In this document: piece by piece, positions 2,925-46,732 of the stretch
Layout: each line of letters starts with the position of its first letter
How positions within the stretch are numbered: position 1 is the stretch's first letter
From: Candidatus Saccharimonadota bacterium
GTDB lineage: Bacteria; Patescibacteriota; Saccharimonadia; Saccharimonadales; Saccharimonadaceae
Assembly: GCA_017431745.1 (NCBI GenBank)
Contig: JAFRKK010000003.1
Location: forward strand, 3,927-67,926
DNA length: 64,000 nt
Direction: 5' to 3'
Made by a program: the position numbers and the translations under genes
Notes under the pieces: generated by a model
What the model was told of the DNA's origin: nothing
Seen by the model: only the letters and a program-made list of their open reading frames with translations
Database searches by the model: none

Positions 2925-5399
2925 GTGGAGAGATTTTTGGAGTATTTTATACCGGAAAGGTACGTATTAGATATTGAGGTAGATAAGGGGCGAAAGACGA
3001 TTGGGGGAGTAGTGAAGGTTTATGGGGTATCTAAAGCTGAAAATATTAAGTTCCACGCGGTAGGCTTATCTGTTAAGGAAGTGTTAATTGATGGTAAAAA
3101 GTGGGATTTTAAATGTGAAAATGGCGTTTTGACGCTATTTAAGGTGCCTAGGAGCGATTTGAATATCGAAATAGGGTATGAGGGCACTTTGAATGAGAAT
3201 ATGCAGGGGGCATACTTATCGACTTATGAATATAATGGAAAAACGGAAATAATAGTAGCGACGCAGTTTGAGTCGCATTATGCTAGGGAGGCGTTTCCGT
3301 GTATTGATGAGCCCGCGGCAAAAGCGGTGTTTGAACTGACAATCACAGCTTCGGCAGAAGATATAGTGTTGTCTAATATGCCAGAAATGAAATTTAGTTC
3401 GGCGCCGCGTCGCTCGCGCCCGTCGCCACGGGGCGAGCGCGCTAATTCTCGCGCTGCCGCGCTCCGAAATGCGCCGAACCAAATTTCAGTTTCTGGCCGT
3501 AAAACCACTATATTTGAGCCGACGCCGAGAATGTCGACATATTTGCTGGCGTGGGTGATTGGTAAGTTTCATGGGAAAACTGTGAAGAATGAGCATGGGG
3601 TGGAGATTACGACTTACACGGCGTTGAACCAAGAAATTGATTCGGTGGATTTTGCAAATGAGGTAGCAGCACGGAGTTTGGAGTTCTATGATGATAATTT
3701 TGGGATAGATTATCCATTGAAAAAACTAGACCAAGTGGCTTTGCCAGATTTTGACGCGGGGGCAATGGAAAACTGGGGACTAGTGACTTATCGAGAATCA
3801 ATGTTACTTGCGTCGAAAGATGCGACTTTGGGGGCGCGAAAATCAGTGGCGTTAACTGTGGCGCATGAGCTTTCGCACCAGTGGTTTGGGGACCTTGTAA
3901 CGATGAAGTGGTGGGATGATTTGTGGTTAAATGAATCGTTTGCGTCGGTGATGGAATACTATGCAGTGGATGCGATTTATCCAGATTTTAAAATTTGGGA
4001 AAGCTTCTTTACGGGAGATTGTACGGCGGCTTTGAATCGGGATGCGTATCAAGGTGTGCAATCGGTGCATCAAGAGGTTCATGACCCGGAGGAAATCGTG
4101 ACCTTGTTTGATGGGGCGATTGTGTACGCCAAAGGCGCGAGATTAATGCTGATGTTGATTCGGTTGATGGGTTGGGAAGAGTTTTGCAAGGGGATACATG
4201 AGTATTTTGAAAAATATAAATATGAAAATACGGTGGGGGATAATTTGTGGGCTTGTCTTAAACCTTATGCAAAATTTGACCCGGGTGAGTTGATGCATGC
4301 ATTTATCGACCAACCCGGTTATCCAATAGTGACAAATGTGGGAGTGGATTTTGATAAGTTTACACAGAAGCGGTTTTTGTTGGACGGCGAAATGCCAGAA
4401 TCGGATTGGCCTTTGCCGGAAATCCGGGAAGATATGAGTGGGCATTATGTGCTGAATTTGAGTGACGAGGAGTTTGATGAAAGATTGAAAAGATTTGATG
4501 AGTTGGGGCTAGAAGAAAAGCTGAGGCTTTTGATTGATAGAGATTTGATTACGCGAGCGGGGGTGGTGAGCCCGGCGTCGTTGGTACCGCTGGTGATGAA
4601 GTTTAAAAACGAATCTGTGGCAGCGGTGTGGAATAAGTTAGCATCGCTAGTCGGTAATTTGAAGGTGTATTTTGATGATGAGTCGGAGGAAGAAAAGAGA
4701 TTAAAGAATTACGTTTATGAGTTGGTAGATGAGAGGTTGAAGGAAGTTGGGATGGAGACGAGAGAGGGTGACGATGAGAATACGATTCGTTTAAGAGCGA
4801 ACTTAATGGCGCTAGATTATTTTGCGGAGGATAAGGAGAGATTTGAGGAGCTGGCGGTAAAATATGAGGACGATTACAGTAAGATGGACGCTGAGGTAAG
4901 GGATTCGATTATTAGTGCTAAGGTGTATTTAGAGCCGGAGTTTGTAGATGAGTGTTTGAAAAAATACCAGGAAGTGAGCGATCCGGATGTGAAGTTTGAT
5001 TATTTGGCGGCGGCGTGTTTGGTGCGAGATGAAAAAGAGCTAGATAAATTGATTGCGCTTCTTGGTGAAAATGAGATAGTAAAGCCGCAGGACCAATTGT
5101 ATTTGTTTGTATATTTATATCGGAACCCGAAATGTAGAAAAAAGGCGTTTGAATGGCTAGTAAATAATTGGGAGACGGTGAAGAGGATAAATGGTGATAA
5201 GGCACTCGATAGCTACCCAACGATAATCGCGAAGCTTGCGAGAACGAAAGAAGAGTATGAGGATTATGTAGAATTCTTTAAGCCGATGGAAAACGATTCG
5301 TTAATGGCGCGAGCGGTGAAAATTGGGATGAACGAAATTAAAGCAAGACTAGAATTGATTGAAAAGAATAAAGAAGAAGTGCTTAAAGCGATTTCTTGA
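2925..5399 (+). CDS. pepN: M1 family aminopeptidase (PepN), with an in-frame palindromic insertion
   Basis: ATQFE...AREAFPCIDEP, GAMENWGL, HELSH-x18-E (NESFA), ERAP1-like C-terminal helical domain. RBS AAGGAGG. Confidence 0.95.
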   Translation: MERFLEYFIPERYVLDIEVDKGRKTIGGVVKVYGVSKAENIKFHAVGLSVKEVLIDGKKWDFKCENGVLTLFKVPRSDLNIEIGYEGTLNENMQGAYLSTYEYNGKTEIIVATQFESHYAREAFPCIDEPAAKAVFELTITASAEDIVLSNMPEMKFSSAPRRSRPSPRGERANSRAAALRNAPNQISVSGRKTTIFEPTPRMSTYLLAWVIGKFHGKTVKNEHGVEITTYTALNQEIDSVDFANEVAARSLEFYDDNFGIDYPLKKLDQVALPDFDAGAMENWGLVTYRESMLLASKDATLGARKSVALTVAHELSHQWFGDLVTMKWWDDLWLNESFASVMEYYAVDAIYPDFKIWESFFTGDCTAALNRDAYQGVQSVHQEVHDPEEIVTLFDGAIVYAKGARLMLMLIRLMGWEEFCKGIHEYFEKYKYENTVGDNLWACLKPYAKFDPGELMHAFIDQPGYPIVTNVGVDFDKFTQKRFLLDGEMPESDWPLPEIREDMSGHYVLNLSDEEFDERLKRFDELGLEEKLRLLIDRDLITRAGVVSPASLVPLVMKFKNESVAAVWNKLASLVGNLKVYFDDESEEEKRLKNYVYELVDERLKEVGMETREGDDENTIRLRANLMALDYFAEDKERFEELAVKYEDDYSKMDAEVRDSIISAKVYLEPEFVDECLKKYQEVSDPDVKFDYLAAACLVRDEKELDKLIALLGENEIVKPQDQLYLFVYLYRNPKCRKKAFEWLVNNWETVKRINGDKALDSYPTIIAKLARTKEEYEDYVEFFKPMENDSLMARAVKIGMNEIKARLELIEKNKEEVLKAIS
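3388..3488. repeat. Palindromic mini-element inserted in frame in pepN
   Basis: 18-bp arms TGAAATTTAGTTCGGCGC / GCGCCGAACCAAATTTCA (1 mismatch). The GC-rich core resembles the elements at 21333 (opposite strand) and 35908. Confidence 0.9.
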
Positions 5400-6612
5400 A
5401 ATCTTTAAGCGAGATTAGTTTGGATTTGCCGGTTTTGCGGTCAGTGATTTCGACGGAATCTTTTTCTAAAGTTTTGTCGGAAATGACGACGCGGTAAGGG
5501 ATGCCGATGAGGTCAGCGTCGGCGAACTTTTCGCCTGGGCGAAGGTCACGGTCATCGAGAATAATGTCGTTTTCGTGGCCTTTGTAGAATTTCTCGGCTT
5601 GTTTGACGCCCTTGTCGTCGATACCAATTAAGTAATACTTATATGGGGCGACTGATTCTGGCCAGTAGAGACCTTTATCATCTGCAAAGTACTCAGCGAG
5701 TACGCCCATCAAGCGTGAAATACCAATGCCATAACAGCCCATGTAAATTTCACGGCGTTCGTTGTTGTCGTCAGTGTATTCAAGGCCAAGTGGTTGGCTG
5801 AATTTGGTGCCGAGCTTGAAGATGTTACCGACTTCGGCGGCCGTGTCTTCGGTGAGGTCGGATTTTTTGATATTAAACTCTTTTAAGACTTCAGGAATGA
5901 CAACTTCTTTGTTTAGGACAACTGATTTATCCTTAGTATAGTAGACGGTGTCTTCGCCGACGGGGAGAAGAGTTTGGAACTCGTGAGAGAATTTAGAGAA
6001 AATACCACCAGAGGCAAAACATGGGAAAGTAACATCGCCAAGACCAACACGTTCATAAACATTTAGGTAAGCTTGGAATACTTTGTCGTAAAATTTGTCG
6101 AGATCTTTTTGTGAAGTGTGGAAGCTATACAAATCCTTCATCAAGAATTCGCGACCACGCATAATGCCGGATTTGGCACGCTTTTCGTTACGGAATTTGG
6201 TTTGGAATTGATAAATAGCAAGTGGCAAATCCTTGTAGCTAGAAATATACTCCTTCATCATGTTAGTGATTGGCTCTTCGTGGGTAGGAGCAAGGCCAAC
6301 CATGCCGCCGCTACTAACTTCAGTTTTAAACCAGATGTCGACTTCTTGGTCGGACCAACGGCCAGTTTTTTCCCAGAGTTCAGGGTTTTGAAGGGCAGTG
6401 AATTGCATTTCTTCGCAGCCGATGCTGTTTAATTCGTCACGAACAATGTTTTCGATATTGTTAATAACGCGCATGCCAAATGGTAGATAGTCATAGACAC
6501 CGGCCATTTCCTTATGGATGAAGCCAGCTCTGGTTAGTAGGGCGCCATTTGTCGCAGTTTCGTCCTTGGGTGCCTCGCGCAAGGTTTTGATAAAAGTTTG
6601 TGTCATTCTCAT
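5383..6612 (-). CDS. proS: Proline--tRNA ligase (short form, no large editing insertion)
   Basis: GFIHKEMAGVYDYLP, LAPTHEE, QFQTKFRNE.R...G..RGREFLMKD.YSF, MGCYGIGISR, C-terminal anticodon-binding domain. The 3' end overlaps the pepN 3' end convergently. Confidence 0.96.
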   Translation of the reverse strand: MRMTQTFIKTLREAPKDETATNGALLTRAGFIHKEMAGVYDYLPFGMRVINNIENIVRDELNSIGCEEMQFTALQNPELWEKTGRWSDQEVDIWFKTEVSSGGMVGLAPTHEEPITNMMKEYISSYKDLPLAIYQFQTKFRNEKRAKSGIMRGREFLMKDLYSFHTSQKDLDKFYDKVFQAYLNVYERVGLGDVTFPCFASGGIFSKFSHEFQTLLPVGEDTVYYTKDKSVVLNKEVVIPEVLKEFNIKKSDLTEDTAAEVGNIFKLGTKFSQPLGLEYTDDNNERREIYMGCYGIGISRLMGVLAEYFADDKGLYWPESVAPYKYYLIGIDDKGVKQAEKFYKGHENDIILDDRDLRPGEKFADADLIGIPYRVVISDKTLEKDSVEITDRKTGKSKLISLKDFKKSL

Positions 6613-6685
6613 AATCATTTAATTATACCCCATATTGCGGCGACGGTCAAATCTTGTTATAATAGTGGTAAATGATGGAGGTATT

Positions 6686-7810: not shown

Positions 7811-7811
7811 A

Positions 7812-7961: not shown

Positions 7962-8903
7962 TTATTTAGTTATAATAGTGCCAGCTTTTCCTTCTAGGGC
8001 GGCGGCAAGGTGTTTGATGTCGGTGATAATGCCGGTTCTGCCTGGTTTTTCAGCGAACTTTGCAGCGGCTTCGATTTTGGGGAGCATAGAGCCAGCTTTG
8101 AAATAGCCGTATTTTTTGAGATGGTTTATTTCTTTGACAGTAATGTTTTTGAGGGCGGTTTGTTCTTTGGTGCCAAAATTGAGATAGGCGTTAGGGACAG
8201 CCGTGACGGATACAAAGATGTCGGCTTTGGTCAACTCGGCGAGTTTTTCGGCGGCGTAATCTTTATCAATGACGGCATCGATACCTTTGAGGCGTTTTAA
8301 CACTTTAGTGCGAGTAACTGGGATACCGCCACCGCCGGTAGCAATGACAATGACTCCATCTTCGACGAGTTCTTGGATGGATTTTTTCTCAACAATATCG
8401 ATAGGCTTAGGGGAAGCAACAACACGACGCCAACCTCGGCCGGCGTCTTCTTTGACGGTCCAACCATTTTTCTTAGCAAGAGTTTTAGCTTCTTTTTTGC
8501 TGTAGAATTGACCGATGGGTTTGGTGGGGTCTTTAAAGGCCGAATCGTTTTTGTCTACTACGACTTGAGAGACGATGGTGGCAACTTTTTTGTTTTTGCC
8601 TGCTTTTAGGAAGGCATTATTGATGGCTTGAGTCAGCCAATAGCCGATTTGCCCTTGACTCATAGCTACTGCGGTTTCGAGTGGCATAGCAGGAGCTTGG
8701 TCGGTAGCGGCCTTTTCTTCATGAATGAGGATGTTACCGATTTGAGGGCCATTACCGTGAGCAATGATGATTTCGTATTTGTTAGCAAGTTCGGCGATTT
8801 TTTCGCCGACTTCGATAGCTACTTTTTTTTGGGCTTCAGCAGTGGCTTCGCCGTTTTTTTGTAAAGCATTTCCACCGAGAGCTAAGACGATTCTTTTTTT
8901 CAT
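7962..8903 (-). CDS. arcC: Carbamate kinase
   Basis: LALGGNAL, HGNGPQIG, DAGRGWRRVVASPKP, GGGGIPV, AVIDKD, GSMLPKIEAA. Confidence 0.97.
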   Translation of the reverse strand: MKKRIVLALGGNALQKNGEATAEAQKKVAIEVGEKIAELANKYEIIIAHGNGPQIGNILIHEEKAATDQAPAMPLETAVAMSQGQIGYWLTQAINNAFLKAGKNKKVATIVSQVVVDKNDSAFKDPTKPIGQFYSKKEAKTLAKKNGWTVKEDAGRGWRRVVASPKPIDIVEKKSIQELVEDGVIVIATGGGGIPVTRTKVLKRLKGIDAVIDKDYAAEKLAELTKADIFVSVTAVPNAYLNFGTKEQTALKNITVKEINHLKKYGYFKAGSMLPKIEAAAKFAEKPGRTGIITDIKHLAAALEGKAGTIITK

Positions 8904-8988
8904 ATTTTTATTATAGCACAAGTGTTAAAATTGCTTGTGCTTAAGGTTGATTTGATGTATAATAAAAGCATAAACAAGGGCATCATAA

Positions 8989-9996
8989 ATGGATTTTTAC
9001 GGAAAAGATTTTTTAAGAATATTGGATTTTAGTGAGGAAGAGCTGCATTATATGTTGGCAGTGGCGAGAAAATTTAAGGAAATGAAAAAACAGGGAATGA
9101 ACCATAAGTATTTCCCGCAGAAAAACATTGCGATTTTATTTGAAAAAACATCAACTAGGACGAGATGTTCGTTTGAAGTGGCGGGATATGACCTTGGGAT
9201 GGGAGTGACATATTTGGATCCGACAGGTTCACAGATGGGGCATAAAGAATCAATTGCGGATACAGCAAGGGTTTTGGCTAGAATATATGATGGTATTGAA
9301 TACCGTGGGTTCGATCAAAGAGTGGTAGATGAATTGGCAAAATATTCAGACGTGCCCGTATGGAATGGTTTGACTGATGAATGTCACCCGACGCAGGCGC
9401 TAGGTGATTTTATGACGATTGAAGAACATTTTGGAAAATTGCAAGGACTTACTGTGGCATTTGTAGGTGATACTAGGAATAATACGGCGAATTCTTTGAT
9501 GGCGATGAGTGCGAAAATGGGCGTGAACTTTATTGCTTGTGGTCCGAATGAATTGAGACCGACAGAAGAGATTGTGAAAAAATGCAGCGAAGTGGCGGAG
9601 AAGAACAATTGCACCATTACGGTGACGAATGATATTAATACTCTTTCTGGCGTTGCGGATGTAATTTATGCTGATGTGTGGCTATCAATGGGCGAGGCAA
9701 AGGAAAAATGGGGCGAGAGAATTGAGCTTCTAAAACCGTATCAGGTCAATAAAGAATTGATGAGTAAAATGAAAGATACAACGATTTTCTTGCATTGTTT
9801 GCCTTCATTCCATAATACCGATACGACGATTGCGAAAGAAATTGAATCGACTTTTGGTTTGAAGGAAATGGAGGTGACAGACGAGGTATTTGAATCGGAT
9901 AAATCGTTAGTGTTTGACCAAGCAGAAAATCGCATGCACACAATTAAAGCGGTGATGTACTTAACACTCTACAAAAAGGAGGAGCCACAACAATGA
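8989..9996 (+). CDS. arcB: Ornithine carbamoyltransferase (catabolic by context)
   Basis: FEKTSTRTR, VWNGLTDECHPTQ, DVWLSMGE, HCLP, QAENRMHTIKA. Adjacent to arcA and arcC. Confidence 0.96.
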   Translation: MDFYGKDFLRILDFSEEELHYMLAVARKFKEMKKQGMNHKYFPQKNIAILFEKTSTRTRCSFEVAGYDLGMGVTYLDPTGSQMGHKESIADTARVLARIYDGIEYRGFDQRVVDELAKYSDVPVWNGLTDECHPTQALGDFMTIEEHFGKLQGLTVAFVGDTRNNTANSLMAMSAKMGVNFIACGPNELRPTEEIVKKCSEVAEKNNCTITVTNDINTLSGVADVIYADVWLSMGEAKEKWGERIELLKPYQVNKELMSKMKDTTIFLHCLPSFHNTDTTIAKEIESTFGLKEMEVTDEVFESDKSLVFDQAENRMHTIKAVMYLTLYKKEEPQQ

Positions 9997-11225
9997 AAAA
10001 TATGATTAGCAATTTTAGTGAGATAGCGCCACTCAAAAAAGTGTTGATGCATCGGCCGGGTGATGAGTTTTTGAATTTAACACCGAACACTTTAGAAAGA
10101 TTGTTATTCGATGACATTCCGTATCTTAAAATTGCACAGGAAGAGCATGATGCGTACGCGAACGCAATGCGAGCAGAGGGTGTGGAAGTAGTGTATATTA
10201 CGGATCTTGCAGCGGAAGCGATTGAGGCAGGAGGGCGTACTGTGAAGAAAAAGTTTTTGGAACAATTTATTCGTGAGGCTGGTGTGACTTCACCAAAAAT
10301 AGCGAAACACTGCTTTGATTATTTGAACGGAATTAAAGACACGCGCGACATGGTGAAAAAATGTATTGCGGGGATAGACATCTCGGAATTGAAAAAACTA
10401 GGTAAAATATCAGGGTTTTATGCAACGCGCGATACCGGTCGGATGATACTAGATCCGATCCCGAACATTTTGTTCCAACGCGATCCGATGGCGACAATTG
10501 GAAATGGAGCGACCTTGCACAAAATGTGGTCAGTGACGCGGACACGTGAGTCCATTTTTATGGAATATGTGTACGAATATCACCCGTTTTACAAAGGAAC
10601 AAAACTGTATTATGATCGGACGGAGCCTTACTGTATTGAGGGCGGAGATATCCAGGTGCTGTCATCGGAGGTAGTGGCGATTGGGATTTCACAACGAACA
10701 GAACCGGACGCGATTGCGGATTTTGCGCGGAATTTATTTAAAGATAAAAAGAACTCGTTTAAATATGTGCTGGCGATTGATATTCCAGATGAGCGTAGTT
10801 TCATGCATCTTGATACTGTGATGACACAGGTAGATGTGGATAAATTTGCGGTACAGGATGCGATTATGGATATTTCGACAATCTATGAGATTTCGGCAGG
10901 TCGAGGTGGTGAAATTGAAATTATGGAGATTCATCAGAATTTGACGAAGGTATTAGAGAAATATTTACATCTGAATAAAGTTGAGTTGATCAAGTGCGGT
11001 AATGGGCGGAGAATTGACGCAGAACGTGAACAGTGGAGTGACGGTGTGAATTTGATGTGTATACGTCCGGGCGTAGTGATGGCGTATGATCGTAATTTTG
11101 TGACAAATCAGGCTTTGAGAAAACACGGGATTAAAGTGATTGAAATTCCATCCTCGGAACTTTCGCGCGGACGGGGTGGTTCGCATTGTATGGCCATGGC
11201 GCTGGTCAGAGAGGAGGCGCAGTAA
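9993..11225 (+). CDS. arcA: Arginine deiminase
   Basis: SEIAPLKKVLMHRPG, LLFDDI, PNILFQRD, IEGGD, MHLDTV, ELSRGRGGSHCM (catalytic Cys). Start overlaps the arcB stop (ATGA). Confidence 0.97.
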   Translation: MKNMISNFSEIAPLKKVLMHRPGDEFLNLTPNTLERLLFDDIPYLKIAQEEHDAYANAMRAEGVEVVYITDLAAEAIEAGGRTVKKKFLEQFIREAGVTSPKIAKHCFDYLNGIKDTRDMVKKCIAGIDISELKKLGKISGFYATRDTGRMILDPIPNILFQRDPMATIGNGATLHKMWSVTRTRESIFMEYVYEYHPFYKGTKLYYDRTEPYCIEGGDIQVLSSEVVAIGISQRTEPDAIADFARNLFKDKKNSFKYVLAIDIPDERSFMHLDTVMTQVDVDKFAVQDAIMDISTIYEISAGRGGEIEIMEIHQNLTKVLEKYLHLNKVELIKCGNGRRIDAEREQWSDGVNLMCIRPGVVMAYDRNFVTNQALRKHGIKVIEIPSSELSRGRGGSHCMAMALVREEAQ

Positions 11226-11276: not shown

Positions 11277-13070
11277 ATGTTTAGGAAGAAAAATCGAAGT
11301 AAGAAACGAACACGCGCGATGCTTTCGGCGTATTCGATTATTATGATTTTGATTATAATACTTGGCATTTTGTCGCATGTTTTGCCTAAAGCGCAGTATG
11401 TGGCAGCTCCAGTAGAAGCGGAAGAAGCTTCAATTGAAGTTGGCCCTGGTGAATGGGAAGGTGAAATGCCAGAAGGTGGGCCAGCGGAGCTGAATGGCGA
11501 AGTGCCACCTAGGCCAGAGGATGGTGAGCGGATGGTCTTGCCAGAAGGTGAATCGGTTCAACCGACAGTAGGCGATGAAGTAACGAGTGAAGGTTTGACA
11601 GAAGACTATAATGCAGAAATTACCGGTACGATTACGGCTGGCGACGAAGTCTCAACGGAAGCTTTGGACGAGGAATTAGCTACTGAAGAAGAGGCTTTTG
11701 ACTCGATGGAAGCTTGCGAGGAAGTTTATGGCGAAGAAGGATGCGTAATCAAGGATGGTTCTGGTGTCGAAGGTGCGGAGCTTTATCAGGTTTTGATGGC
11801 GCCGATTTTAGGATTCCAGGATGCAATTGATGTATGTATCTTTGTGATGATTCTTGGTGGATTCCTTGCGGTAATGGCGAAAACCAAAGCGTTGGAAACT
11901 GGAATTAAGATTCTAGTAAAGAAGATGCACGGAAAAGAGTATTTGTTGATTGCAGTGTTGATGCTGATTTTCTCAATCATGGGTACGACGTATGGGTTCC
12001 TTGAGGAATCTGTTGGATTCTATGTGTTGATCGCGGCAACAATGTTTGCAGCAGGACTTGACCCATTGGTGGGCGTAGCAACTATTTTGCTTGGTGCAGG
12101 TGCTGGTGTGCTGGGTTCGACGATTAACCCATTTGCTACCGGTGTGGCCGTATCAGCAATGAAAGATGCTGGAATTGATTTTAATCAAGGAACGATTATT
12201 TTAATCGCGACAGTGCTATGGCTCACAACGCTTGCGGTTTCAATGTTCTTTGTGATTCGCTATGCGAAAAAGGTACAACGAGATAAAGGCTCAACATTTT
12301 TGTCGTTGCGTGAACAAGCGGCGGCCGAGAAGAGATATTCTAAGTTCTTGCAGGCTAAGGATGACGTACTAAAATTAACGGGCCGTCAGATTGCCTCGTT
12401 GATTGTGTTTGCGTTGACGTTTGTAGTAATGATTATCGGGTTTATCCCTTGGGGTGATTTCGGTATTACATTCTTTGACGATTGGACAGGATGGTTAACC
12501 GGTGCATCACTCGGGAACTGGTGGTTCTATGAAGCGGCCTTATGGTTCTTGATTGCCTCGATTATTATTTCGATTATTAATCGACAAGGTGAGCATGGGT
12601 TTATCGATACATTTATTGATGGTGCAGACGATATGATTGGCGTAGTTCTCGTGATTGCAGTAGCGCGTGGTGCGTCAGTATTGATGGCGGAAACAGCAAT
12701 GGATAATTATATCGTGGTGAATGCGGCGGCAGGGCTTGCATCGCTTCCTGAAATGGCGTTTGTGCCTCTGAACTATTTATTGCATGTAGTGCTCTCAGTG
12801 TTAGTCCCATCATCTTCAGGATTAGCAACGCTTTCGACACCGATCATTACGCCGGTGGCAGCACAGCTAGGATACAGCACCAATGTGGCGGCAATGACAA
12901 TTGTGGCAGCCAATGGCTTAGTCAACTTGATTACGCCGACTTGTGGCGCAATTATGGCTGGCTTGGCGCTTGCAAAAGTTGATTATTCAACTTGGTTTAA
13001 GTGGGGGATTAGAGTGGTAGCATGTATTGCAATAGTTAATATTATCGTACTTTGTCTGTTTTCTCTTTAG
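11277..13070 (+). CDS. arcD: ArcD/YfcC-type arginine:ornithine antiporter with a long acidic insertion
   Basis: Many TM segments, GSTINPFATG, VPSSSGLATLSTPI, LITPTCGAIMAGL...W.KW (YfcC/DcuC family). Last gene of the arc cluster. Confidence 0.85.
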   Translation: MFRKKNRSKKRTRAMLSAYSIIMILIIILGILSHVLPKAQYVAAPVEAEEASIEVGPGEWEGEMPEGGPAELNGEVPPRPEDGERMVLPEGESVQPTVGDEVTSEGLTEDYNAEITGTITAGDEVSTEALDEELATEEEAFDSMEACEEVYGEEGCVIKDGSGVEGAELYQVLMAPILGFQDAIDVCIFVMILGGFLAVMAKTKALETGIKILVKKMHGKEYLLIAVLMLIFSIMGTTYGFLEESVGFYVLIAATMFAAGLDPLVGVATILLGAGAGVLGSTINPFATGVAVSAMKDAGIDFNQGTIILIATVLWLTTLAVSMFFVIRYAKKVQRDKGSTFLSLREQAAAEKRYSKFLQAKDDVLKLTGRQIASLIVFALTFVVMIIGFIPWGDFGITFFDDWTGWLTGASLGNWWFYEAALWFLIASIIISIINRQGEHGFIDTFIDGADDMIGVVLVIAVARGASVLMAETAMDNYIVVNAAAGLASLPEMAFVPLNYLLHVVLSVLVPSSSGLATLSTPIITPVAAQLGYSTNVAAMTIVAANGLVNLITPTCGAIMAGLALAKVDYSTWFKWGIRVVACIAIVNIIVLCLFSL

Positions 13071-13259
13071 AATAATATAATAGTTATTTCTAAAGCTTGG
13101 ACTTGTTTGCTTGTAATTATTACAACATAAGTCAAGAAAAAATCTCCTTATTCGCCCTTCGGGCTGGGGGAGATTTTTTCATTGTTAAGTTGTAATAATT
13201 ACGCAAACAAATCTGGTCTAAATCTCATTATGCTTTAGAAATAACTATTATATTATTCT
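13069..13259. repeat. 191-bp imperfect palindrome between arcD and gpmI (includes a terminator-like core)
   Basis: Perfect 28-bp outer arms at 13069-13096 and 13232-13259, inner arms TAATTATTACAAC/GTTGTAATAATTA and GAAAAAATCTCC/GGAGATTTTTTC. Confidence 0.92.
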
Positions 13260-13276
13260 TATGTTATAATAGCAGT

Positions 13277-25637: not shown

Positions 25638-25705
25638 TATTATAAATAAGCGGAAAAGTGCGTAAAAAGGGCTAGACATGAGGATTTTTGTGGTATAATA
25701 GAATT

Positions 25706-31453: not shown

Positions 31454-31984
31454 ATGGCTGAAAAAGCTAAGGCGTCCAAAAAGGACAATAAAAATTTAAT
31501 AATCGGCATCTGCGCGGCTATTGTTGCAGTAGTAATCATTGTTATAGTGGTACTGGCTGTTCGTGGCGGTGGCTTAGGTGATGATTATTTCGTTTCGGAC
31601 GGCACTAAATATGTGCTAACAATTGAGTCTGATGATATCGAAGACAATAACGAATTTACGCCACTCAAGACTCACCTTGTTTATACCTATGATGGCGACA
31701 AGGTCACTAGCATGAAGTCATATTATGTCTATGCTGATGCCGATGCAGCCAAAGCTGCTTTTGATGCGATGCAAGAAGCTGGCGGGGAGGAAGCTAAGGG
31801 CATGGAACTTAACGGCAAATACATTATTATGACCGCCGAAGAGGATGTTTATAAGGACCTCACTACTAGTGACGTAAAAAAGCAAATTGAGTTTATAGAA
31901 GCACTTAAGAATTCGGATACTAGTTCCGCTGGGGATAGCAACGAAAGCGAAAACACCGAAGAAACCGTTGAAGTTGAGGAATAA
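31454..31984 (+). CDS. Hypothetical membrane-anchored protein with an acidic tail
   Basis: RBS AGGAGG, N-terminal basic stretch plus one TM, small domain, E/S-rich C-terminus. Confidence 0.8.
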   Translation: MAEKAKASKKDNKNLIIGICAAIVAVVIIVIVVLAVRGGGLGDDYFVSDGTKYVLTIESDDIEDNNEFTPLKTHLVYTYDGDKVTSMKSYYVYADADAAKAAFDAMQEAGGEEAKGMELNGKYIIMTAEEDVYKDLTTSDVKKQIEFIEALKNSDTSSAGDSNESENTEETVEVEE

Positions 31985-34671: not shown

Positions 34672-34737
34672 ATAGATGTATTATACCATAGATTTTGTTT
34701 TTTGCATAAAAAATGAATTAATACTATAATAGTGGGT

Positions 34738-35922
34738 ATGAATAGAGTGCCATTAGCGGAGAGAATGAGACCGACGAAGCTATCTGAGGTGGTGGGACAG
34801 GATGAAATTATTGGTGAAGGAAAAATTTTGACGGAGATTGTGCGGAAAGGTGAACCGGTAAACTTGATTTTTTGGGGGCCACCGGGGACAGGTAAGACGA
34901 CGCTGGCTCGGATTTTGGCGCGAGAATTTGAAGCAGATTTTGTGGAGATATCGGCGGTGACGGCGGGGAAAAAGAATGTTGAAGAAGTAGTAGAACGAGC
35001 AAAATTAAACTGGAATCTGAAAACACGGACGATTTTGTTTGTGGATGAAATCCATCGGTTTAATAAGGCGCAGCAGGATGCATTTTTGCCACACGTTGAA
35101 TCGGGATTGATTACTTTGATTGGGGCTACAACAGAGAACCCTTCGTTTGAAGTGATTTCGCCGCTGCTTAGCCGTTCACGGGTCGTAGTGGTGTCAGCGC
35201 TATCGAAGGATGCGATTATTGAGGTATTGAAGCGGGCGATTAAAGCAGAAAAAGCTTCGAAGCGAGTATCTAAGAAAGCAATTGATTTGTTAGCGGAGCT
35301 GTCGGGTGGTGATGCGAGGGCGGCATTAGGGGATTTGGAATTAGCTTTGTCACTAGCTAGTAAGGTGGATGAAAAAGTAGTAGAAGAGGCGGCGGGAAAG
35401 AAAATGCCAGGGTACGATAAGAAAGGCGACAACCATTATGACACGATCTCAGCATTTATCAAATCGATGCGTGGTTCGGATGTGGATGCGGCACTTTATT
35501 ATCTTGCTCGGATGGTAGAAGCAGGTGAAGACCCGAAGTTTATCGCACGGAGAATGGTAATTTTTGCTTCAGAAGATATTGGGCTAGCTGGGAATGGAGC
35601 GCTTAGCCTTGCGACGGCGTGTTTTCAAGCGGTGGAAAGAGTGGGGATGCCGGAATCGGGGTTAATGTTGGCGCATTGTGCGGTGGCTCTCGCGCTATCG
35701 AAAAAGTCGCGGCAAACAACGGATGCGTGGTATAAAGCACTTGAAGTGGCGCGTAAATCGCGAGGTGAGCCGGTGCCGACGTGGCTTCGGAACGCGCCGA
35801 CCAAATTAATGAAAGATTTGGGATATGGAAAAGGTCAAAAATGGGAGGCGGGGTTCCATCTCGACAAAAGTTACTTGCCAGAGAGTATTAAGGACGTTGA
35901 AATATGGAAGACAACTAAATAA
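34738..35922 (+). CDS. rarA: Replication-associated recombination protein A (RarA/MgsA)
   Basis: PLAERMRP, WGPPGTGKTTLA, FVDEIHRFNKAQQD, ATTENPSFEV, YDKKGDNHYDTISAFIKS.RGSD. Confidence 0.97.
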   Translation: MNRVPLAERMRPTKLSEVVGQDEIIGEGKILTEIVRKGEPVNLIFWGPPGTGKTTLARILAREFEADFVEISAVTAGKKNVEEVVERAKLNWNLKTRTILFVDEIHRFNKAQQDAFLPHVESGLITLIGATTENPSFEVISPLLSRSRVVVVSALSKDAIIEVLKRAIKAEKASKRVSKKAIDLLAELSGGDARAALGDLELALSLASKVDEKVVEEAAGKKMPGYDKKGDNHYDTISAFIKSMRGSDVDAALYYLARMVEAGEDPKFIARRMVIFASEDIGLAGNGALSLATACFQAVERVGMPESGLMLAHCAVALALSKKSRQTTDAWYKALEVARKSRGEPVPTWLRNAPTKLMKDLGYGKGQKWEAGFHLDKSYLPESIKDVEIWKTTK

Positions 35923-36026
35923 AGCCGTTCGGGACACGGGTCGGCTCGGCCCGTCGTTACGGGCGAGCCGCCCTCTTTCTCGGTCGTAACCTCCGAACGG
36001 TCCCTCAGGCTTTATTTAGTTGTCTT
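35908..36026. repeat. Palindromic mini-element between convergent rarA and the DsbA-like gene
   Basis: Perfect 19-bp arms AAGACAACTAAATAAAGCC/GGCTTTATTTAGTTGTCTT. Core TTCGGGACAC...CGGTCCCTCAGG is shared with other copies. Confidence 0.93.
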
Positions 36027-36774
36027 AGCTATCTAAGCCGGCTTGGAAGTACATTTTGACGTATTCCCAGCCCCAGGAGAGGTCGAAGCCGGAGGAGGTG
36101 TAGTTGTTGAATTTGAAATAAGGCATACCATTGGTGAGTTTGGCGGTTTTTTCGGCGTTCTTTTTAATTTCATTGAGAGGGTCTTGGTTTTTAACACAAT
36201 TGTCAAACTCTTCGCCAAGGCCGATTTGATGTCCGATTTTGATCCAGTAGTCGGGTCCGAGGCTACCCATCTTAGAGAAGGCAGACTTGCCGAGGTCTTT
36301 GAAATAATCATTCCAAATGTTAGTGACGGCGAGATTGTAGTAATCCCAGAATTTGCCTTGTGATTTGGCACAATAAGTGGCGACGGCGGAATAGCGGGAG
36401 TGGATGGGGCTACTTTCGCCAAATTCATAGAGAAAGTCAGAGAGGCGAATTTCGACGAGAATGTCGTTTTCGGCGATATATTTTTGGAATTCGTCTTCGT
36501 GTTCGACGATGGCGTTTTCGAAGGCGACACAGTAAGGGCAAACAAGATCAGAATAAATAACGAAGTAGTTTTTAGCGTTTATGTTGCCGGTGGTCGTTTG
36601 TTCATCCCAAATTTTTTCGGAATTTGAGGGCTCTTTTGGGGTCATACTAATAACAATGGCGGCAATAATAATTGCAATAATTGCAATGATGCCACCGATT
36701 CTAAGAACTTTTTTCACTTTTCTCCTTTTTCTCCTTACTCGTTTGCTTCGCCTTTTTAGCGAGGTATTTTTCAT
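36025..36774 (-). CDS. Membrane-anchored DsbA/thioredoxin-like protein
   Basis: Basic N-terminus plus TM, then YSDLVCPYC (CPYC) and GMPYF cis-Pro-like motif. Confidence 0.8.
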   Translation of the reverse strand: MKNTSLKRRSKRVRRKRRKVKKVLRIGGIIAIIAIIIAAIVISMTPKEPSNSEKIWDEQTTTGNINAKNYFVIYSDLVCPYCVAFENAIVEHEDEFQKYIAENDILVEIRLSDFLYEFGESSPIHSRYSAVATYCAKSQGKFWDYYNLAVTNIWNDYFKDLGKSAFSKMGSLGPDYWIKIGHQIGLGEEFDNCVKNQDPLNEIKKNAEKTAKLTNGMPYFKFNNYTSSGFDLSWGWEYVKMYFQAGLDS

Positions 36775-37342
36775 TTATTATTATAGCATAGGTTTCGACA
36801 CCGAGACGCTTTAAGGATAAGATAGCGATGACGATAGCAAGAATGGTGACGATAGTACTGACAGTGCCGGCGATGGCGAGGCTGCCAGTGCTAAAAATGG
36901 CACCGATAAGAGGAGTGAGTAAGGTGGCGCCGCAAGTGGGGCAACCAGCGCCGAGAGCGATTAGTCCAGTGATAATACCGGCTTTCTCGAGACTTTCGGC
37001 ATTTTGACCCTTTTTTGTGCGCTTTTTGTCCCAGAGGAGAGTAATGAGGCCGATAAGGATTCCTTGGAGTGTGGCGATTAAAAAGATTGGAAGCCAGTCA
37101 AGAAACGGTTGATTAATGCCAAAAATTGCAAGGAAACTGCTCCAGATGATCTGGAGATTTTGCGGGAAACCGAGAGCACCCATGAGCTCAAATTTGCTGG
37201 TACCGCCGGACAAAAGGTTCATGAGCATGCCAAAAAAGATAAAGCTAGGGATTGCCCCGTACCAAAATTTACGTTCTTTGGTGGCGAGCAAGATACCTTT
37301 ACCCGCTAAAACAAATTCGTCGAGCCATTTCCTCCAATTCAT
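36701..37342 (-). CDS. Hypothetical 4-TM membrane protein with a CxxC motif
   Basis: Hydrophobic segments and GAGCPTCGA. 3' end overlaps the start of the DsbA-like gene. Confidence 0.75.
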   Translation of the reverse strand: MNWRKWLDEFVLAGKGILLATKERKFWYGAIPSFIFFGMLMNLLSGGTSKFELMGALGFPQNLQIIWSSFLAIFGINQPFLDWLPIFLIATLQGILIGLITLLWDKKRTKKGQNAESLEKAGIITGLIALGAGCPTCGATLLTPLIGAIFSTGSLAIAGTVSTIVTILAIVIAILSLKRLGVETYAIIINEKYLAKKAKQTSKEKKEKSEKSS

Positions 37343-38689: not shown

Positions 38690-38693
38690 ACTT

Positions 38694-38775
38694 AAACTCA
38701 CAATACCATCCTTCTCGGACACACTCAAGGCCGTTCGGCCAAGCTTACGGTCCTCGAAGGAGGTATTGTGAGTTT
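38694..38775. repeat. Short palindromic mini-element overlapping the rsmA RBS and start
   Basis: Perfect 14-bp arms AAACTCACAATACC/GGTATTGTGAGTTT. Core CTCGGACACACTCAAGG...AAGCTTACGGTCCTCG closely matches the 46655 copy. Confidence 0.9.
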
Positions 38776-39514
38776 GAATAATAATATCAAGCTAGGGCAG
38801 CATTGGTTGAAAAACCGAGATATCCTAAATGAAATTGCGGCTTTGGCTGGTGATGGAAAGTTATGTGTGGAGATTGGGCCGGGGCTAGGGTTTTTGACAT
38901 CGTCCCTACTTCGACGATTTAAAAATGTAATTGCGGTGGAATATGATGATAGACTGGCTTTGAATTTACCGAAGTCGTTTCCGGGGACTGGATTAGAGGT
39001 GGTGCACGGGGATTTTTTGGAGTATGATTTTGCTGGAGTTGATGCCCCTTATGCGATTGCAGGAAACATTCCATATTATATTACGTCGCCGATAATTGAG
39101 AAGGTACTAAGTTTAGAAGTTTTGCCGGAGCGAGTGGTTTTATTAATTCAGAAGGAAGTTGCGGAGCGCATTTTGTCGGATAAGGAGACGGTTTTGTCGC
39201 TGTTTGTGAAGAATAGGGCTCGAGTTTCAGCAGGGCCGGTAGTAAAGGCGGCTGAATTTACGCCTCCACCGAAGGTTGATTCGCAAGTAATTGTAATGGA
39301 GCCGCATGCGCCAGAAGTATCGGATGAAGTGTTTGATTTGATTCGGAAGGGATTTTTGGCGCCGAGGAAGAAATTAGTGCATAATTTGAGTGGACTAAAA
39401 CCACGAGATGACTTAATGCGGATTCTTGAATCTGTAGGTGTTTCGCCAGATGTTCGGCCAGGGGATTTGCACCTGGAGGATTGGGCTAAACTTTATCAAA
39501 AGATATATTCGTAA
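38768..39514 (+). CDS. rsmA: 16S rRNA adenine dimethyltransferase RsmA/KsgA
   Basis: LGQHWL, VEIGPGLG.LT, AVEYD, GNIPYYITSP, QKEVAERI, FTPPPKVDS. Confidence 0.96.
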   Translation: MSLNNNIKLGQHWLKNRDILNEIAALAGDGKLCVEIGPGLGFLTSSLLRRFKNVIAVEYDDRLALNLPKSFPGTGLEVVHGDFLEYDFAGVDAPYAIAGNIPYYITSPIIEKVLSLEVLPERVVLLIQKEVAERILSDKETVLSLFVKNRARVSAGPVVKAAEFTPPPKVDSQVIVMEPHAPEVSDEVFDLIRKGFLAPRKKLVHNLSGLKPRDDLMRILESVGVSPDVRPGDLHLEDWAKLYQKIYS

Positions 39515-44002: not shown

Positions 44003-45274
44003 ATGAAACATTCAGTCGAGGAAATCACACTAAAGAATGGGGCGAAGGGGCTGTTTATTGATATTCCGGGAGCTTCTGTGATGTCGACTCGAATTCAATT
44101 TAGAGCGGGGATGCTTTATGCGAAAAATAAATATGTGTATGAGATTCCACACGTGGTGGAACATTTAGCTTTTGGGGCAAATGCAAAATATCGGGATGAA
44201 CAGGCTTTTGAGGCAGAATTTACTAAAAATGGGGCATATCACAATGCGTGGACTTCGGATATATCGGTGTGTTATGAGACGGAATGTGCGGATTTTGAGT
44301 GGGAAAGAATTATGGAGCTTCAGCAGGTGTCGATTTGCGAGCCGAGATTTAATGAGGAAGAATTAAAGTCAGAGAAGGCTAATGTAAAATCTGAACTTAC
44401 CGGCTACATGAATGATTATTATCGGTTGCTTTGGCCGCGAGTACAGCAGGCGGTGGGTGAAGAGGTGCTTGATTTATCGCAAAGGCGAGAAACGATAGCG
44501 AATATTGACCTAAAGGATATTCGAGAGCATTATCGGAGAACTCATACTGCGAAAAATATGCGGTTCATTATTGCTGGGCGTTTGAAGGGGCGAAAGCACA
44601 AATTGGTGAAAATGTTGGAAGCGTGGAATTTGAAAGAAGGAAAGGAATTTGACATTCCTTTGGTTGAATTGCACTCTTCAGAGGCAGTGTCAATTCGTCG
44701 AAAGGATGCGTCGAATATTACGTTTGGATTTTCGCTAGTGACGCCACGACACTTGGAGCCTTCGGAGGTGTTTGCGATGAATTGTTTGAACCATATTTTG
44801 AACGGAACGACTAATTCGAAGATTTTTGGGGCGGCCAGGAAGCGGGGGTTGGTGTATGGGATGGGCTCCTCAATTGCTTCAAATGCGCACAATTCGTATT
44901 GGGATTTTGACGGGGAAGTAAATATTGAAAATGCAGAGGAGTTGTTTGAGCTTATTCAAACGGAATTAATGAAGACGCTAAATAGCGAGATACTGGATAT
45001 GGATTTTTTGGCGGCAAAATCTTATGCGATGGGTAGATTCCAGATGGGGGCGCAAACGGTGGGACAAATCGCGGATTATTATGCTGACGGATTCTTTACT
45101 AATGGGACGATTGAAAAATATGATAATATGCCAAACCTCATTAAATCGATTGATAAGTTTAAGATGATTGAGTTAGCGCGTGAATTTGCAGGTTCAGGTA
45201 TAAAGGGGTTTGCGGCGGTGTCATCTGTTGAGAAAGCGTTTATTTCTGAATTAGAGAATAGATTGAACTTCTAA
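44003..45274 (+). CDS. M16 family zinc peptidase
   Basis: Inverted zincin motif HVVEH, NAWTS, EELKSEKANVKSE, RKRGLVY. Confidence 0.88.
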   Translation: MKHSVEEITLKNGAKGLFIDIPGASVMSTRIQFRAGMLYAKNKYVYEIPHVVEHLAFGANAKYRDEQAFEAEFTKNGAYHNAWTSDISVCYETECADFEWERIMELQQVSICEPRFNEEELKSEKANVKSELTGYMNDYYRLLWPRVQQAVGEEVLDLSQRRETIANIDLKDIREHYRRTHTAKNMRFIIAGRLKGRKHKLVKMLEAWNLKEGKEFDIPLVELHSSEAVSIRRKDASNITFGFSLVTPRHLEPSEVFAMNCLNHILNGTTNSKIFGAARKRGLVYGMGSSIASNAHNSYWDFDGEVNIENAEELFELIQTELMKTLNSEILDMDFLAAKSYAMGRFQMGAQTVGQIADYYADGFFTNGTIEKYDNMPNLIKSIDKFKMIELAREFAGSGIKGFAAVSSVEKAFISELENRLNF

Positions 45275-45433
45275 TAAATAAATTATAAGTTGATTCACTC
45301 ACGTCAAGTAATTCTTGATGATTTTTTAAACGGAAATTTTCGCGTCTTGCCTACGTCGCGCTGCAAAAATTTCCTAAAGACCACCAAGAATTACTTGGTT
45401 CGTTCAAGACTTACAATTTATTTATTAGAAGTT
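45266..45433. repeat. 168-bp imperfect palindrome spanning both stop codons of the convergent M16 peptidase and murD genes
   Basis: Perfect 19-bp arms at 45266-45284 and 45415-45433; inner arms CAAGTAATTCTTG/CAAGAATTACTTG and GGAAATTTT/AAAATTTCC. Confidence 0.92.
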
Positions 45434-46634
45434 TAAATTGATTCCCTCGGTCGTAGACGTTTTCGAACATGTCGAAAGAGGCGGCGGCGGGGGACATGAC
45501 TATGATAGACGGGGACATGCTTTCGGCTTCGGATTTGGCGGTGCTGATTGCTTCATTGAGCGATTCAGCTAGGATGAATCTGTCGTCTTGATATTTTTTG
45601 GTTAGTTCGTGGCCGGATTCGCCGATGAGGACGATTTTTTTGACTTGGGGAGCCTGCAGAATCTCGTAGATTTCAGGGAGATCTTCGTAATTGGTTTTGT
45701 CGCGACCACCGAGGATAACTACTAGGTTGTCATTTGGGAAGGCGTTGATTGCAACGCGAGTTGAGGATGGATTGGTTGAGAAATTGTCGTCGTAATATTT
45801 AACGCCGTTGATTTCACGGAGGTATTCGAGGCGATGGGGGAGACCTTTGAAGTTTTTGAGACCTTCTATGATGGTGGCTTGATGGTCCTTCAAATATTCA
45901 TCTGGTGATATATTTAAGAGACAGGAAACTGCGGAAATAGCGGCGATAGCGTTGTTTTCATTGTGAACGCCAGGTAGAGTGATAGCGTTTTTTACCTCTG
46001 TTGGGATGGTGAATGGATAGGGGATTTTCTGGGCTTTTGAGGTGTCTGCGATTTTGGTGGTTTCGGGGTTTTCCTTGAAGTAAATGAGGTAATCATCTGG
46101 GGTTTGGTATTTGGTGATATTGGCCTTGGCATTTAGGTAATCAGCGTAGTCTTTATGAATGTTGAGATGATCGGGCTCTAATTGTCCGAGAATGGCGATA
46201 TGAGGAGATTTGGTGACGTCCCAGAGTTGAAAACTAGATAATTCATAGACTACAACAGAGGTAGGTTTGAGCTCATCTAGGATATCAATAGCAGGGTTGC
46301 CGATGTTGCCGACAAGATAGGAATCTTGGCCTTCGGCATCAAGAAGAGCTTTGATAAACGAGCAAGTGGTGCCTTTGCCTTTGGTGGCGGTGACGCCAAT
46401 AATTGGGCAAGGACAGTGGTCAAAAAAGTATTTAGTGAGGCTGGATTCGTTTTTTAGCCCCAGGGGTGGGACGCTGGGGCTTCGCAAAATTATATCATAG
46501 GATGAATAATCCTTGTTTATTATTTCGTTGTAGGTGAAATCTTCAAAAACATCGATTTCAGCGTTAAATTTGTCCTTGAAATATTTTTCGGCAGATTTGC
46601 CTTCTTTGCCGTAACCGAGCAATGCTATTCTCAT
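45411..46634 (-). CDS. murD: UDP-N-acetylmuramoyl-L-alanine--D-glutamate ligase
   Basis: LLGYGKEG, GVTATKGKGTT, GNIG, ELSSFQL, DHLNIH, GLPHRLE, DDNFSTN, SPAAASFDMF...RG. Confidence 0.96.
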   Translation of the reverse strand: MRIALLGYGKEGKSAEKYFKDKFNAEIDVFEDFTYNEIINKDYSSYDIILRSPSVPPLGLKNESSLTKYFFDHCPCPIIGVTATKGKGTTCSFIKALLDAEGQDSYLVGNIGNPAIDILDELKPTSVVVYELSSFQLWDVTKSPHIAILGQLEPDHLNIHKDYADYLNAKANITKYQTPDDYLIYFKENPETTKIADTSKAQKIPYPFTIPTEVKNAITLPGVHNENNAIAAISAVSCLLNISPDEYLKDHQATIIEGLKNFKGLPHRLEYLREINGVKYYDDNFSTNPSSTRVAINAFPNDNLVVILGGRDKTNYEDLPEIYEILQAPQVKKIVLIGESGHELTKKYQDDRFILAESLNEAISTAKSEAESMSPSIIVMSPAAASFDMFENVYDRGNQFKLLINKL

Positions 46635-46654
46635 AAACTCAATTATACCATAGG

Positions 46655-46732
46655 GCGCGAAAAATATCTCCTTCGGACACGCTCAAGGGCGCTCGCCCAA
46701 GCCTACGGTCCTCAGGAGATAATTTTTCGCGC
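46655..46732. repeat. Short palindromic mini-element overlapping the dus stop codon
   Basis: Arms GCGCGAAAAA-TATCTCCT / AGGAGATA-A-TTTTTCGCGC; core TTCGGACACGCTCAAGG...AAGCCTACGGTCCTCAGG. Confidence 0.9.

Follow-up and report, generated by a model that had tools for sequence, protein, structure and literature searches.

A high-copy family of small hairpin DNA elements with conserved cores and site-specific stems in Candidatus Nanosyncoccus and related Saccharibacteria

The 64,000-nucleotide stretch analysed here (contig JAFRKK010000003.1, positions 3,927 to 67,926; hereafter the window, numbered 1–64000) contains five copies of small hairpin DNA elements, three of a long and two of a short type, which belong to a real high-copy family in Candidatus Nanosyncoccus and related Saccharibacteria. 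In all five copies, a near-perfect AT-rich outer stem, unrelated between copies, carries a GC-rich core at its tip. The existence of the family, the Y shape of the core, its in-frame residence in genes, its flips, its presence/absence polymorphism and its mosaic history are solid observations. Concerning the nature of the elements, we consider it probable that they are small, non-coding, selfish-type DNA elements resembling the Rickettsia palindromic elements (RPEs), whose stems are partly made in place and which are exchanged between lineages as short patches. On the evidence of SecA and its neighbourhood, the window belongs to Candidatus Nanosyncoccus, a member of Saccharibacteria group G3 from the ruminant gut, and the same contig is present in an ENA metagenome assembly. 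For comparison, we used 80 species-level relatives (SecA loci) with 20-kb flanks, which amount to ~2.3 Mb and, with the window, make 81 sources; individual loci are referred to by L numbers.

The original prediction of five related copies at five places holds, although some of the intervals first proposed fall slightly short of the full hairpins. The first long-type copy (whole hairpin 3381–3496, plus strand) lies in-frame within pepN (M1 aminopeptidase open reading frame [ORF] 2925–5399), where a Y-shaped unit at 3398–3478, made of a closing helix P1 (TTCGGCGC/GCGCCGAA) and two internal hairpins, P2 and P3, is enclosed by locus-specific arms at 3381–3397 and 3479–3496. The second (21332–21459, core on the minus strand) is in-frame within a plus-strand UPF0020/RMKL-like methyltransferase ORF (20639–21820), occupying residues 232–274; its conserved unit (21356–21433) stands between arms at 21332–21355 and 21434–21459, which derive from native WLSEK and FSLSQ codons. 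The third (35908–36026, plus strand) is located between the convergent rarA/mgsA (34732–35922) and thioredoxin-like (36025–36774, minus strand) genes, with its conserved unit at 35927–36007, a left arm (35908–35926) containing the last rarA codons, KTTK, plus the stop, and a right arm (36008–36026) that is an inverted copy of the left. The first short-type copy (38692–38778, plus strand) separates a G5-domain gene (stop at 38689) from rsmA (38768–39514); its core (38715–38755) is flanked by arms at 38692–38714 and 38756–38778, the latter providing a GGAGG and the annotated GTG start of rsmA. The second (46655–46732, plus strand) lies between dus (46712–47674, minus strand) and a Mur-ligase gene (45411–46634, minus strand), with its core at 46672–46713 and arms at 46655–46671 and 46714–46732; the right arm encodes the last six codons of dus (ARKIIS), and the dus stop codon falls at the junction of arm and core. 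Two of the five copies (pepN, methyltransferase) are read through by their host ORFs with no stop, and the other three touch gene ends. A short hairpin within dus (46832–46851, no strand assigned; AGGAATAT GAGA ATATTCCT) is the probable footprint of a lost element.

The five hairpins have energies 7 to 12.7 standard deviations below those of shuffled sequence (z −7 to −12.7) on both strands. Exact arm runs measure 14–21 nt, stems extend up to ~30 bp with interruptions, and the outer 12–25 bp are unique to each locus. The loops are 56–68% GC vs ~43% for the window as a whole, and the cores close with GGAC/GUCC or GGGAC/GUCCC helices (GGCGC/GCGCC in pepN). A repeat search of the window paired 21358–21431 with 35931–36004 (74 nt, 85% complementary), 3406–3451 with 21380–21425 (46 nt, 85%) and, for the short type, 38715–38755 with 46673–46713 (41 nt, 88%), so that the three long cores are 85% identical across 46–74 nt and the two short cores 88% identical across 41 nt. 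The shared sequences proposed earlier for the two types were borne out by pattern searches: the apical motif of the long type finds exactly the three long copies in the window, where 0.26 matches are expected, and the short-type consensus matches both short copies at 0 mismatches, with none of 100 shuffles giving any match. An nhmmer profile built from 86 long cores likewise has exactly three matches in the window, and pattern searches revealed no further copies there and none in shuffles.

The conserved unit is a GC-rich Y, built from P1, P2 and P3 and foldable on either strand, of ~80 nt in the long type and ~41 nt in the short type (41–81 nt overall). In our alignment of 86 long cores (A1), an apical CCCGTCG..ACGGG, invariant but with its bases forming part of the search pattern used to collect the cores, is flanked by the long helix P2 and then by the mini-hairpin P3 and by P1. 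P1 consists of G and C runs (GGGG/CCCC), usually with TTTTC before and GAAAA after; in most copies it is directly bordered by TTTTC(TC) to the left and by (TTC)GAAAA to the right, and no consensus is found more than ~11 nt from P1. Pairing of P2 is kept in 95.7% of alignment cells vs 73.1% in shuffles (0 of 500 shuffles reach that level), double-change cells number 276 vs 88 expected, and the covariation score is 0.519 vs 0.123 in shuffles, with slid partners reaching at most 0.17. One-sided changes in P2 (G-C to G-U) are almost absent. P3 also covaries in A1 when judged by eye (GCGC-TGCC-GCGC, GCCT-TGCC-AGGC, GGT-CGTA-ACC, GCC-CGTA-GGC), and in the short core, which has one hairpin, pairing is likewise kept (GGCCG-TT-CGGCC vs GGGCG-CT-CGCCC).

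A boundary TCGG(G)AC...GT(C)CCTC with a tandem T.C/C.T mismatch had been proposed for the intergenic copies. It is present in three window copies (35908, 38692 and 46655); in related copies, the boundary is often fully paired instead (TTCGGGG...CCCCGAA). With only the closing helix and the boundary motif in common, the long and short types represent two distinct core families. Relatives carry a third core family, C, of ~90–140 nt, with an internal GTGATAAT...TATCAC hairpin, the boundary TCGGGAGC...ATGTCCCTC and, again, site-specific stems; its copies lie in L015 (2258–2398 and 8215–8399), L033 (9428–9575), L042 (2840–2970 and 18042–18171) and L182 (near 911). The boundary motif is common to all three families.

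Beyond the window, many further copies exist, contrary to the refuting outcome (no further copies) named with the original prediction. A pattern scan of metagenome contigs gave at least 120 loci; among the matches listed, 88 of 124 were in contigs below 52% GC, and nearly all of these 88 show the same hairpin anatomy. The long-type profile detects 17 copies in 12 of the 81 sources, including species at 75–79% SecA identity, and the 2.3 Mb of related loci further contain eight short-type and six family-C copies; in relatives, elements also stand at sites other than those of the window. In four metagenomes from the ruminant gut, the word depth reported by the assembler was 107–4515 for the long core vs ~8–60 in its flanks and 112–933 for the short core vs 6–40 in its flanks, an over-representation of 10–100 times, and many contigs stop inside a core and continue into differing flanks. 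Carriage by phages was considered and set aside: two scans of viral contigs with the core patterns gave chance matches only, in contigs of 52–71% GC and without the hairpin anatomy.

Among the metagenome copies that could be classified, 45 of 76 (59%) lie inside long ORFs, a share close to that of random positions, and others lie in spacers. Where at least 300 nt of open frame stand on both sides, 31 copies are in-frame and one changes the frame, with no internal stop in any. The core has the same orientation as the gene in 24 of the 45 genic copies and the opposite one in 21, and stem length does not differ significantly between genic and intergenic copies (median 29.5 vs 26.5 paired positions, p = 0.08). 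The elements reside mainly inside essential genes, among them pepN, dus, mnmA, a lepA-like gene and the methyltransferase gene. On this evidence, genic copies belong to the translated sequence of the host protein, where they fall in loops able to accommodate a disordered stretch; in PepN, APRRSRPSPRGERANSR is an example of a peptide predicted to run through an element. In the AlphaFold2 model of the methyltransferase (mean pLDDT 87, pTM 0.86), the core-encoded residues 240–266 have pLDDT below 50 and make up a loop that links a confidently predicted helix to a confidently predicted strand, the ends of both of which are encoded by the arms. In two further metagenome loci (L173 and L182), long-type elements occupy the same place in what by eye resembles a translation-GTPase (lepA-like) gene, and the stems covary between both contigs.

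These properties bear on the idea that the element is a structured RNA, i.e., a cis-regulatory element, a small RNA, a self-cleaving ribozyme or an intervening sequence removed, for instance, by RNase III cutting the stem. The very stable folds, the strong covariation in P2 and P3, the combination, common to many RNA families, of a conserved core with a variable closing stem, and the supply of the rsmA ribosome-binding site by the right arm would all suit such a function. We nevertheless regard it as highly improbable. The elements stand in both orientations relative to genes, their cores flip between strains (see below), and the helices change almost without the G-U intermediates. A search of the window against Rfam 15 brought only tRNAs to the gathering threshold, and nothing overlapped the five copies even at E values up to 10. 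Excision from the transcript is unlikely because 31 copies are in-frame, one changes the frame and none contains a stop, and an intron would be under no such constraint. The one possible RNA run (X25), with thin and diverged contigs only, contains no joint that skips an element, although it is too thin for a conclusion. In our best reading, the elements are DNA elements and not RNA genes.

Presence/absence polymorphism, whose absence had been named beforehand as a refuting outcome, is seen at dus, rarA, pepN, methyltransferase, mnmA and dus/mur-ligase sites, and the states observed at the same sites comprise empty, occupied, other core type, flipped and footprint. At the internal dus site, after HLDLYEE, L002, L004, L013, L023 and L038 have a full element (flipped in L023 vs L004), L042 has a family-C core, L005 a reduced core and L028 a 105-nt insert without a hairpin, and fewer than 20 species have neither an element nor a hairpin remnant. 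The window and L010 retain only the short hairpin that we read as a footprint: the window dus lacks the native K-T-H codons, which are kept in never-occupied species, and keeps SHIP codons that are an inverted copy of the EEYE codons. The 3′ site of rarA is empty in 16 relatives and is occupied by family C in L042, and in one strain (a contig from run X4) the rarA core is inverted, as indicated by joints 35926/36007 and 35927/36008 on opposite strands with 19 nt shared. In 120 PepN homologues, the loop between SNMPE and FEPTPRMSTYLLA is either empty or occupied by a long core (in either orientation), a short core, another kind of insert or a remnant; the orthologous copy in L219 has a core identical at 79 of 81 positions, with 12/17 and 14/18 identities in its arms.

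A similar range is found in the methyltransferase loop, where many variants occur: of 120 homologues, most carry one and a few are empty. The L216 protein is 89% identical to that of the window, and its core is flipped and identical at 64 of 64 positions after flipping; L217 represents the naive empty state and L215 has a hairpin without a core. The loop of mnmA after GHYAR is another recurrent permissive site, with a short-type element in L018 (7152–7218) and a long-type one in L010 (7032–7144) at the same place. At the G5/rsmA site, relatives are element-free and the two genes overlap or are 0–5 nt apart. In the window they are separated by an element whose right arm gives the GGAGG and the GTG start, and translation initiation of rsmA has therefore been rewired. 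The overlapping arrangement, of rsmA with the end of the G5-domain gene before it, is seen in L002, L012, L024 and L027 (ATGGTTGGTACTAA). The dus/mur-ligase site has an orthologous copy in L026 and is empty in five relatives whose dus and ligase genes overlap (L005, L007, L009, L015 and L022). Separately, the segment 46635–46654 between this copy and the Mur-ligase start (CCTATGGTATAATTGAGTTT on the gene strand) resembles displaced ancestral dus C-terminal codons, with a TATAAT box kept (compare L026), and the now arm-encoded ARKIIS C-terminus of dus hints at a local duplication upon insertion. Many sites lose the element without obvious cost, and orthologous dus copies diverge by ~20% or carry replaced core types.

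The outer stems have a history separate from that of the cores. Their similarity between copies remains at background (0.28) even for pairs with cores 90–97% identical, and L107 contains two identical 80-nt cores with unrelated stems; this rules out that stems travel with the core. Neither did the genic copies settle in pre-existing palindromes, which are missing from the naive empty alleles (the methyltransferase of L217 and many pepN and dus alleles). The outer stem of the methyltransferase copy (TGGCTAAGCGAGAAAG/CTTTCTCGCTTAGCCA) corresponds to the conserved WLSEK and FSLSQ codons, which are not complementary in the naive empty L217. In rarA, the left arm consists of the native KTTK-stop codons and the right arm of their inverted copy, and at the internal dus site both arms combine a native part with a part copied from the opposite arm. 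Between the window and L216, the methyltransferase arms are 21/32 identical on each side, with matched changes, while the core is unchanged and the upstream third codon positions are 82% identical. Since the arms diverge faster than third codon positions, slow neutral drift alone is unlikely to have produced the stems. Mismatches within stems show no clear strand bias (GT 43/TG 26, AC 26/CA 16).

As a plausible mechanism, which these data support moderately, the long near-perfect AT-rich stem would not be carried by the element, and at least part of it would be made in place. Intrastrand template switching at quasipalindromes is a mechanism known from E. coli genetics; once a hairpin exists, conversion of this type could make its flanks complementary, with either flank serving as template. 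The same process would keep the arms matched despite their fast divergence between species, with selection on the protein filtering the outcomes, and the arms would also allow the core to flip. Other schemes were tried and rejected. A single rule of one native arm plus an inverted duplicate made at insertion fits rarA and the internal dus site by sequence and length, but fails at the short-type sites, where both arms are net additions, and in the methyltransferase, where both arms are native codons. A triple structure (native, inverted, native) suggested by the dus/mur-ligase site is absent in recent-looking copies such as those of L107. A palindromic target centred on TTCGAA, suggested by the TTTTC...GAAAA flank consensus, is not supported by the empty sites. 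The window also contains AT-rich nested palindromes without a GC core, all intergenic, at 13056–13272, 45263–45436, 58279–58457 and 25705–25852, with arms of 23–41 nt and 82–135 nt between the outer arms; that at 13056–13272 has a terminator-like hairpin at its centre, and the inner part of that at 45263–45436 is conserved in L031 and L036. These core-less palindromes suggest a general tendency of the genome to extend any hairpin.

A classical miniature inverted-repeat transposable element (MITE) is another reading. Under this alternative, the element would be a deletion derivative of an insertion sequence (IS), moved in trans by a transposase that recognises TCGGG...CCC(T)TC, and the stems would be hairpin targets, such as terminators, that existed before insertion. 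The constant core ends do directly abut variable DNA, the copy number is high, TTC often stands on both sides of the core, and some intergenic copies (e.g., L127 and L133) sit in terminator-like stems followed by a T run. Against it, the naive empty pepN, methyltransferase (L217) and dus alleles lack the 15–30 bp perfect palindromes that the genic copies would have needed, and no longer element with the same ends was seen. Where occupied and empty sites were compared, neither the core nor the hairpin as a whole proved to be bracketed by a consistent direct repeat, the TTC being present on both sides in some copies only. In line with the original prediction, transposase, HUH/Y1 and GIY-YIG domains are absent among the window ORFs scanned, the ~2.3 Mb of related loci not having been searched for transposases. 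Eight window ORFs of 111–260 aa have no Pfam match (at 22553–23185, 27905–28687, 31454–31984, 36701–37342 on the minus strand, and 47791–50263, four of the eight standing in a row at 47.8–50.3 kb) and leave room for an unrecognised enzyme. Taken together, we find an origin of this kind rather unlikely.

Cores at orthologous sites appear to have been exchanged between lineages. The window and L218 pepN genes are 83% identical overall (64% at third positions), and a 240-nt block around the element (3284–3523) is 95–100% identical. In comparison with L082, the gene is 97% identical and 3345–3500 only 32–73%, L082 having another core subtype and unrelated stems. A near relative in metagenomes has a diverged, element-free allele of the same pepN stretch. 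Because of this mosaic identity of pepN in L218 and L082, we propose that element alleles spread, and are swapped, at orthologous sites by short-patch recombination; element-bearing segments would pass between lineages at the same site by homologous recombination of such patches. Lateral exchange may account for part of the core conservation at orthologous sites.

The same data can be read as selection on the core. Here the core would be a DNA-level signal, such as a protein-binding or cleavage site or a sequence favoured in transformation, kept by orientation-independent selection or by molecular drive, and hairpin growth would be a side effect. The pepN core of L219 is nearly unchanged where third codon positions are 51.5% identical, and the flipped methyltransferase core of L216 is fully so where the arms are 66% identical; the unusual P1 of the pepN copy is kept in two species, conservation holds regardless of orientation or encoded peptide, and the recombination patches are short and centred on the element. 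Saccharibacteria have also been reported to be naturally competent. Weighed against this are the conjectural status of any binding protein or uptake bias, the divergence or replacement of orthologous dus cores, the many losses without obvious cost, and the several unrelated core families with the same anatomy, which are hard to reconcile with one common recognition sequence. Besides, lateral exchange, if recent, can by itself look like conservation. We regard this reading as improbable.

Several results weigh against our preferred reading of selfish-type, RPE-like elements with partly home-made stems, and they are gathered here. The analysis revealed neither a mobilising enzyme or parent IS nor a clear target-site duplication, and mobility is deduced entirely from distribution. 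The accelerated evolution of the arms comes from two pairwise comparisons. At the two short-type sites, the ~78–82 nt gained on balance correspond to the core together with its two arms, and in the empty relatives there is hardly any spacer that could have been converted, so that in-place 'zipping' is an incomplete account that does not explain all of the stem DNA. The window and L082 have near-identical flanks and unrelated stems, which requires replacement of the allele. Finally, core conservation exceeds what decay of a selfish element predicts (79/81 identical between the window and L219, where third codon positions are 51.5% identical), and this high conservation would come either from lateral exchange or from purifying selection on the DNA.

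Among known systems, the closest in behaviour are the RPEs, to which the Saccharibacteria elements are analogous without being members. RPEs are small palindromic repeats of ~100–150 bp, in several families, non-coding, and often in-frame in unrelated housekeeping genes of a reduced genome in a manner apparently compatible with the protein fold (PMC10969869). The Saccharibacteria elements are likewise short, palindromic, many-copy and ORF-less, and they stand in-frame in 31 of 32 testable genic copies, with a predicted disordered insert. RPEs are conserved along their whole length and have a preferred reading orientation. In the Saccharibacteria elements, however, only the core is conserved, the outer 12–25 bp of the stem being site-unique and partly host codons; they occur in both orientations, with core flips, and their core is GC-rich in a 43% GC genome. 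Their host is a saccharibacterium and not a member of the Alphaproteobacteria/Rickettsiales; they are set apart from the RPEs by host phylum and by the conservation of the core only, RPE sequences not having been compared.

The original analogy with REP, MITE and Rickettsia palindromic elements thus survives for the last of these, by virtue of in-frame genic insertion. It does not for repetitive extragenic palindromes (REPs), given the lack of GTAG, a core of ~80 nt and the residence of copies outside spacers as well as in them. The MITE-like part fails as far as tested, with no consistent target-site duplication and no parent IS found and with long inverted repeats that lie outside the repeat unit and are partly native host codons. 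With the Neisseria Correia element (Correia repeat enclosed element, CREE) and MITEs in general, the elements share short, non-autonomous, high-copy hairpins near or in genes that are able to supply expression signals. For Correia elements, both inversion and the formation of RNase III substrates are reported (PMC10969869). Here, too, cores invert, and an element arm gives the ribosome-binding site of rsmA. In the Correia element, the terminal inverted repeats are fixed, the target duplication is TA, and there is a relation to transposase-recognised ends, whereas the long inverted repeats of the Saccharibacteria elements are not part of the repeat and differ at every locus, the shared part being a closing helix of 4–6 bp plus TTTTC/GAAAA, with no consistent duplication and no parent element found.

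REPs are 20–40 nt long, lie outside genes, have a conserved 5′ GTAG and flank or accompany a REP-associated tyrosine transposase (RAYT) gene (Y1, IS200/IS605-like). Our elements resemble REPs and bacterial interspersed mosaic elements (BIMEs) of the RAYT system in being many-copy palindromic hairpins, plausibly acting as single-stranded DNA hairpins, with imperfect stems and a conserved mismatch; in contrast, their cores are 41–81 nt and Y-shaped, they have no GTAG, 59% of classifiable copies lie in ORFs, and the window ORFs scanned give no Y1_Tnp or HUH match. A resemblance in kind only is offered by mitochondrial GC clusters and double-hairpin elements of fungi and algae, which are GC-rich palindromes in an AT-richer compact genome, occasionally in-frame and polymorphic for presence or absence. 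We know of no enzyme for these clusters. Saccharibacteria elements are similarly GC-rich, palindromic, strain-polymorphic and sometimes in coding DNA; the clusters, however, are organellar and bear no sequence relationship to them, and, to our knowledge, site-specific long stems and flipping are not among their defining features. As a process, quasipalindrome template switching, like the small inversions of chloroplast hairpins, would explain the near-perfect stems, the compensating arm changes without G-U intermediates and the loop flips. Known cases are isolated mutational hotspots, whereas around the mobile core of these elements such switching would have to be systematic and reach 15–30 bp into coding DNA. 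Among structured RNA families, we found no Rfam match and no fixed orientation relative to the transcript (24 vs 21, with flips). The literature on palindromic or MITE elements of Saccharibacteria and Patescibacteria that we searched, not covering every journal, contained no description of such elements, in line with the original prediction, which was aware of none for this lineage.

Other features of the window are recorded here in their own right. GC skew is strongly positive nearly throughout 1–64000 (mostly +0.15 to +0.48 per kb, and about zero at 26–28 kb and 32–34 kb) and most genes are on the plus strand, the window apparently lying within one replichore. Three tandem tRNA-Pro genes (anticodons TGG, CGG and GGG) occupy 646–901, within 260 nt, and are overlapped by ORFs at 652–915 and 857–2908. 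An arginine deiminase pathway cluster at 7962–11225 comprises an AA_kinase-family gene (presumably carbamate kinase), ornithine carbamoyltransferase and arginine deiminase, followed by a DcuC-type transporter.

The Saccharibacteria and other members of the candidate phyla radiation (CPR) combine very small genomes with a near absence of spacer DNA, and their mobile DNA is poorly characterised. The elements described here add 25–45 disordered residues to proteins, which affects gene calling, orthologue alignment and structure prediction in the phylum, and they explain much of the length variation among orthologues (780–850 aa in PepN, 360–433 aa in the methyltransferase). As repeats, they break metagenome assemblies, many contigs ending inside a core, and they could be used as strain markers. 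The stems, fast-evolving yet matched, and the frequent flips constitute a natural system for hairpin-templated mutation in coding DNA, and the element-centred recombination patches allow the passage of genes among Nanosyncoccus lineages to be followed directly. More tentatively, and with considerable doubt on our part, the Y core may be a recognised DNA module that is kept nearly unchanged, irrespective of orientation and encoded peptide, by selection or by a recombination or uptake drive, and that also seeds the lineage-specific conversion of neighbouring DNA, including essential coding DNA, into long perfect palindromes. If true, short-patch lateral exchange at orthologous sites would be a means of propagation new for bacterial repeats, and one by which they reshape proteins.

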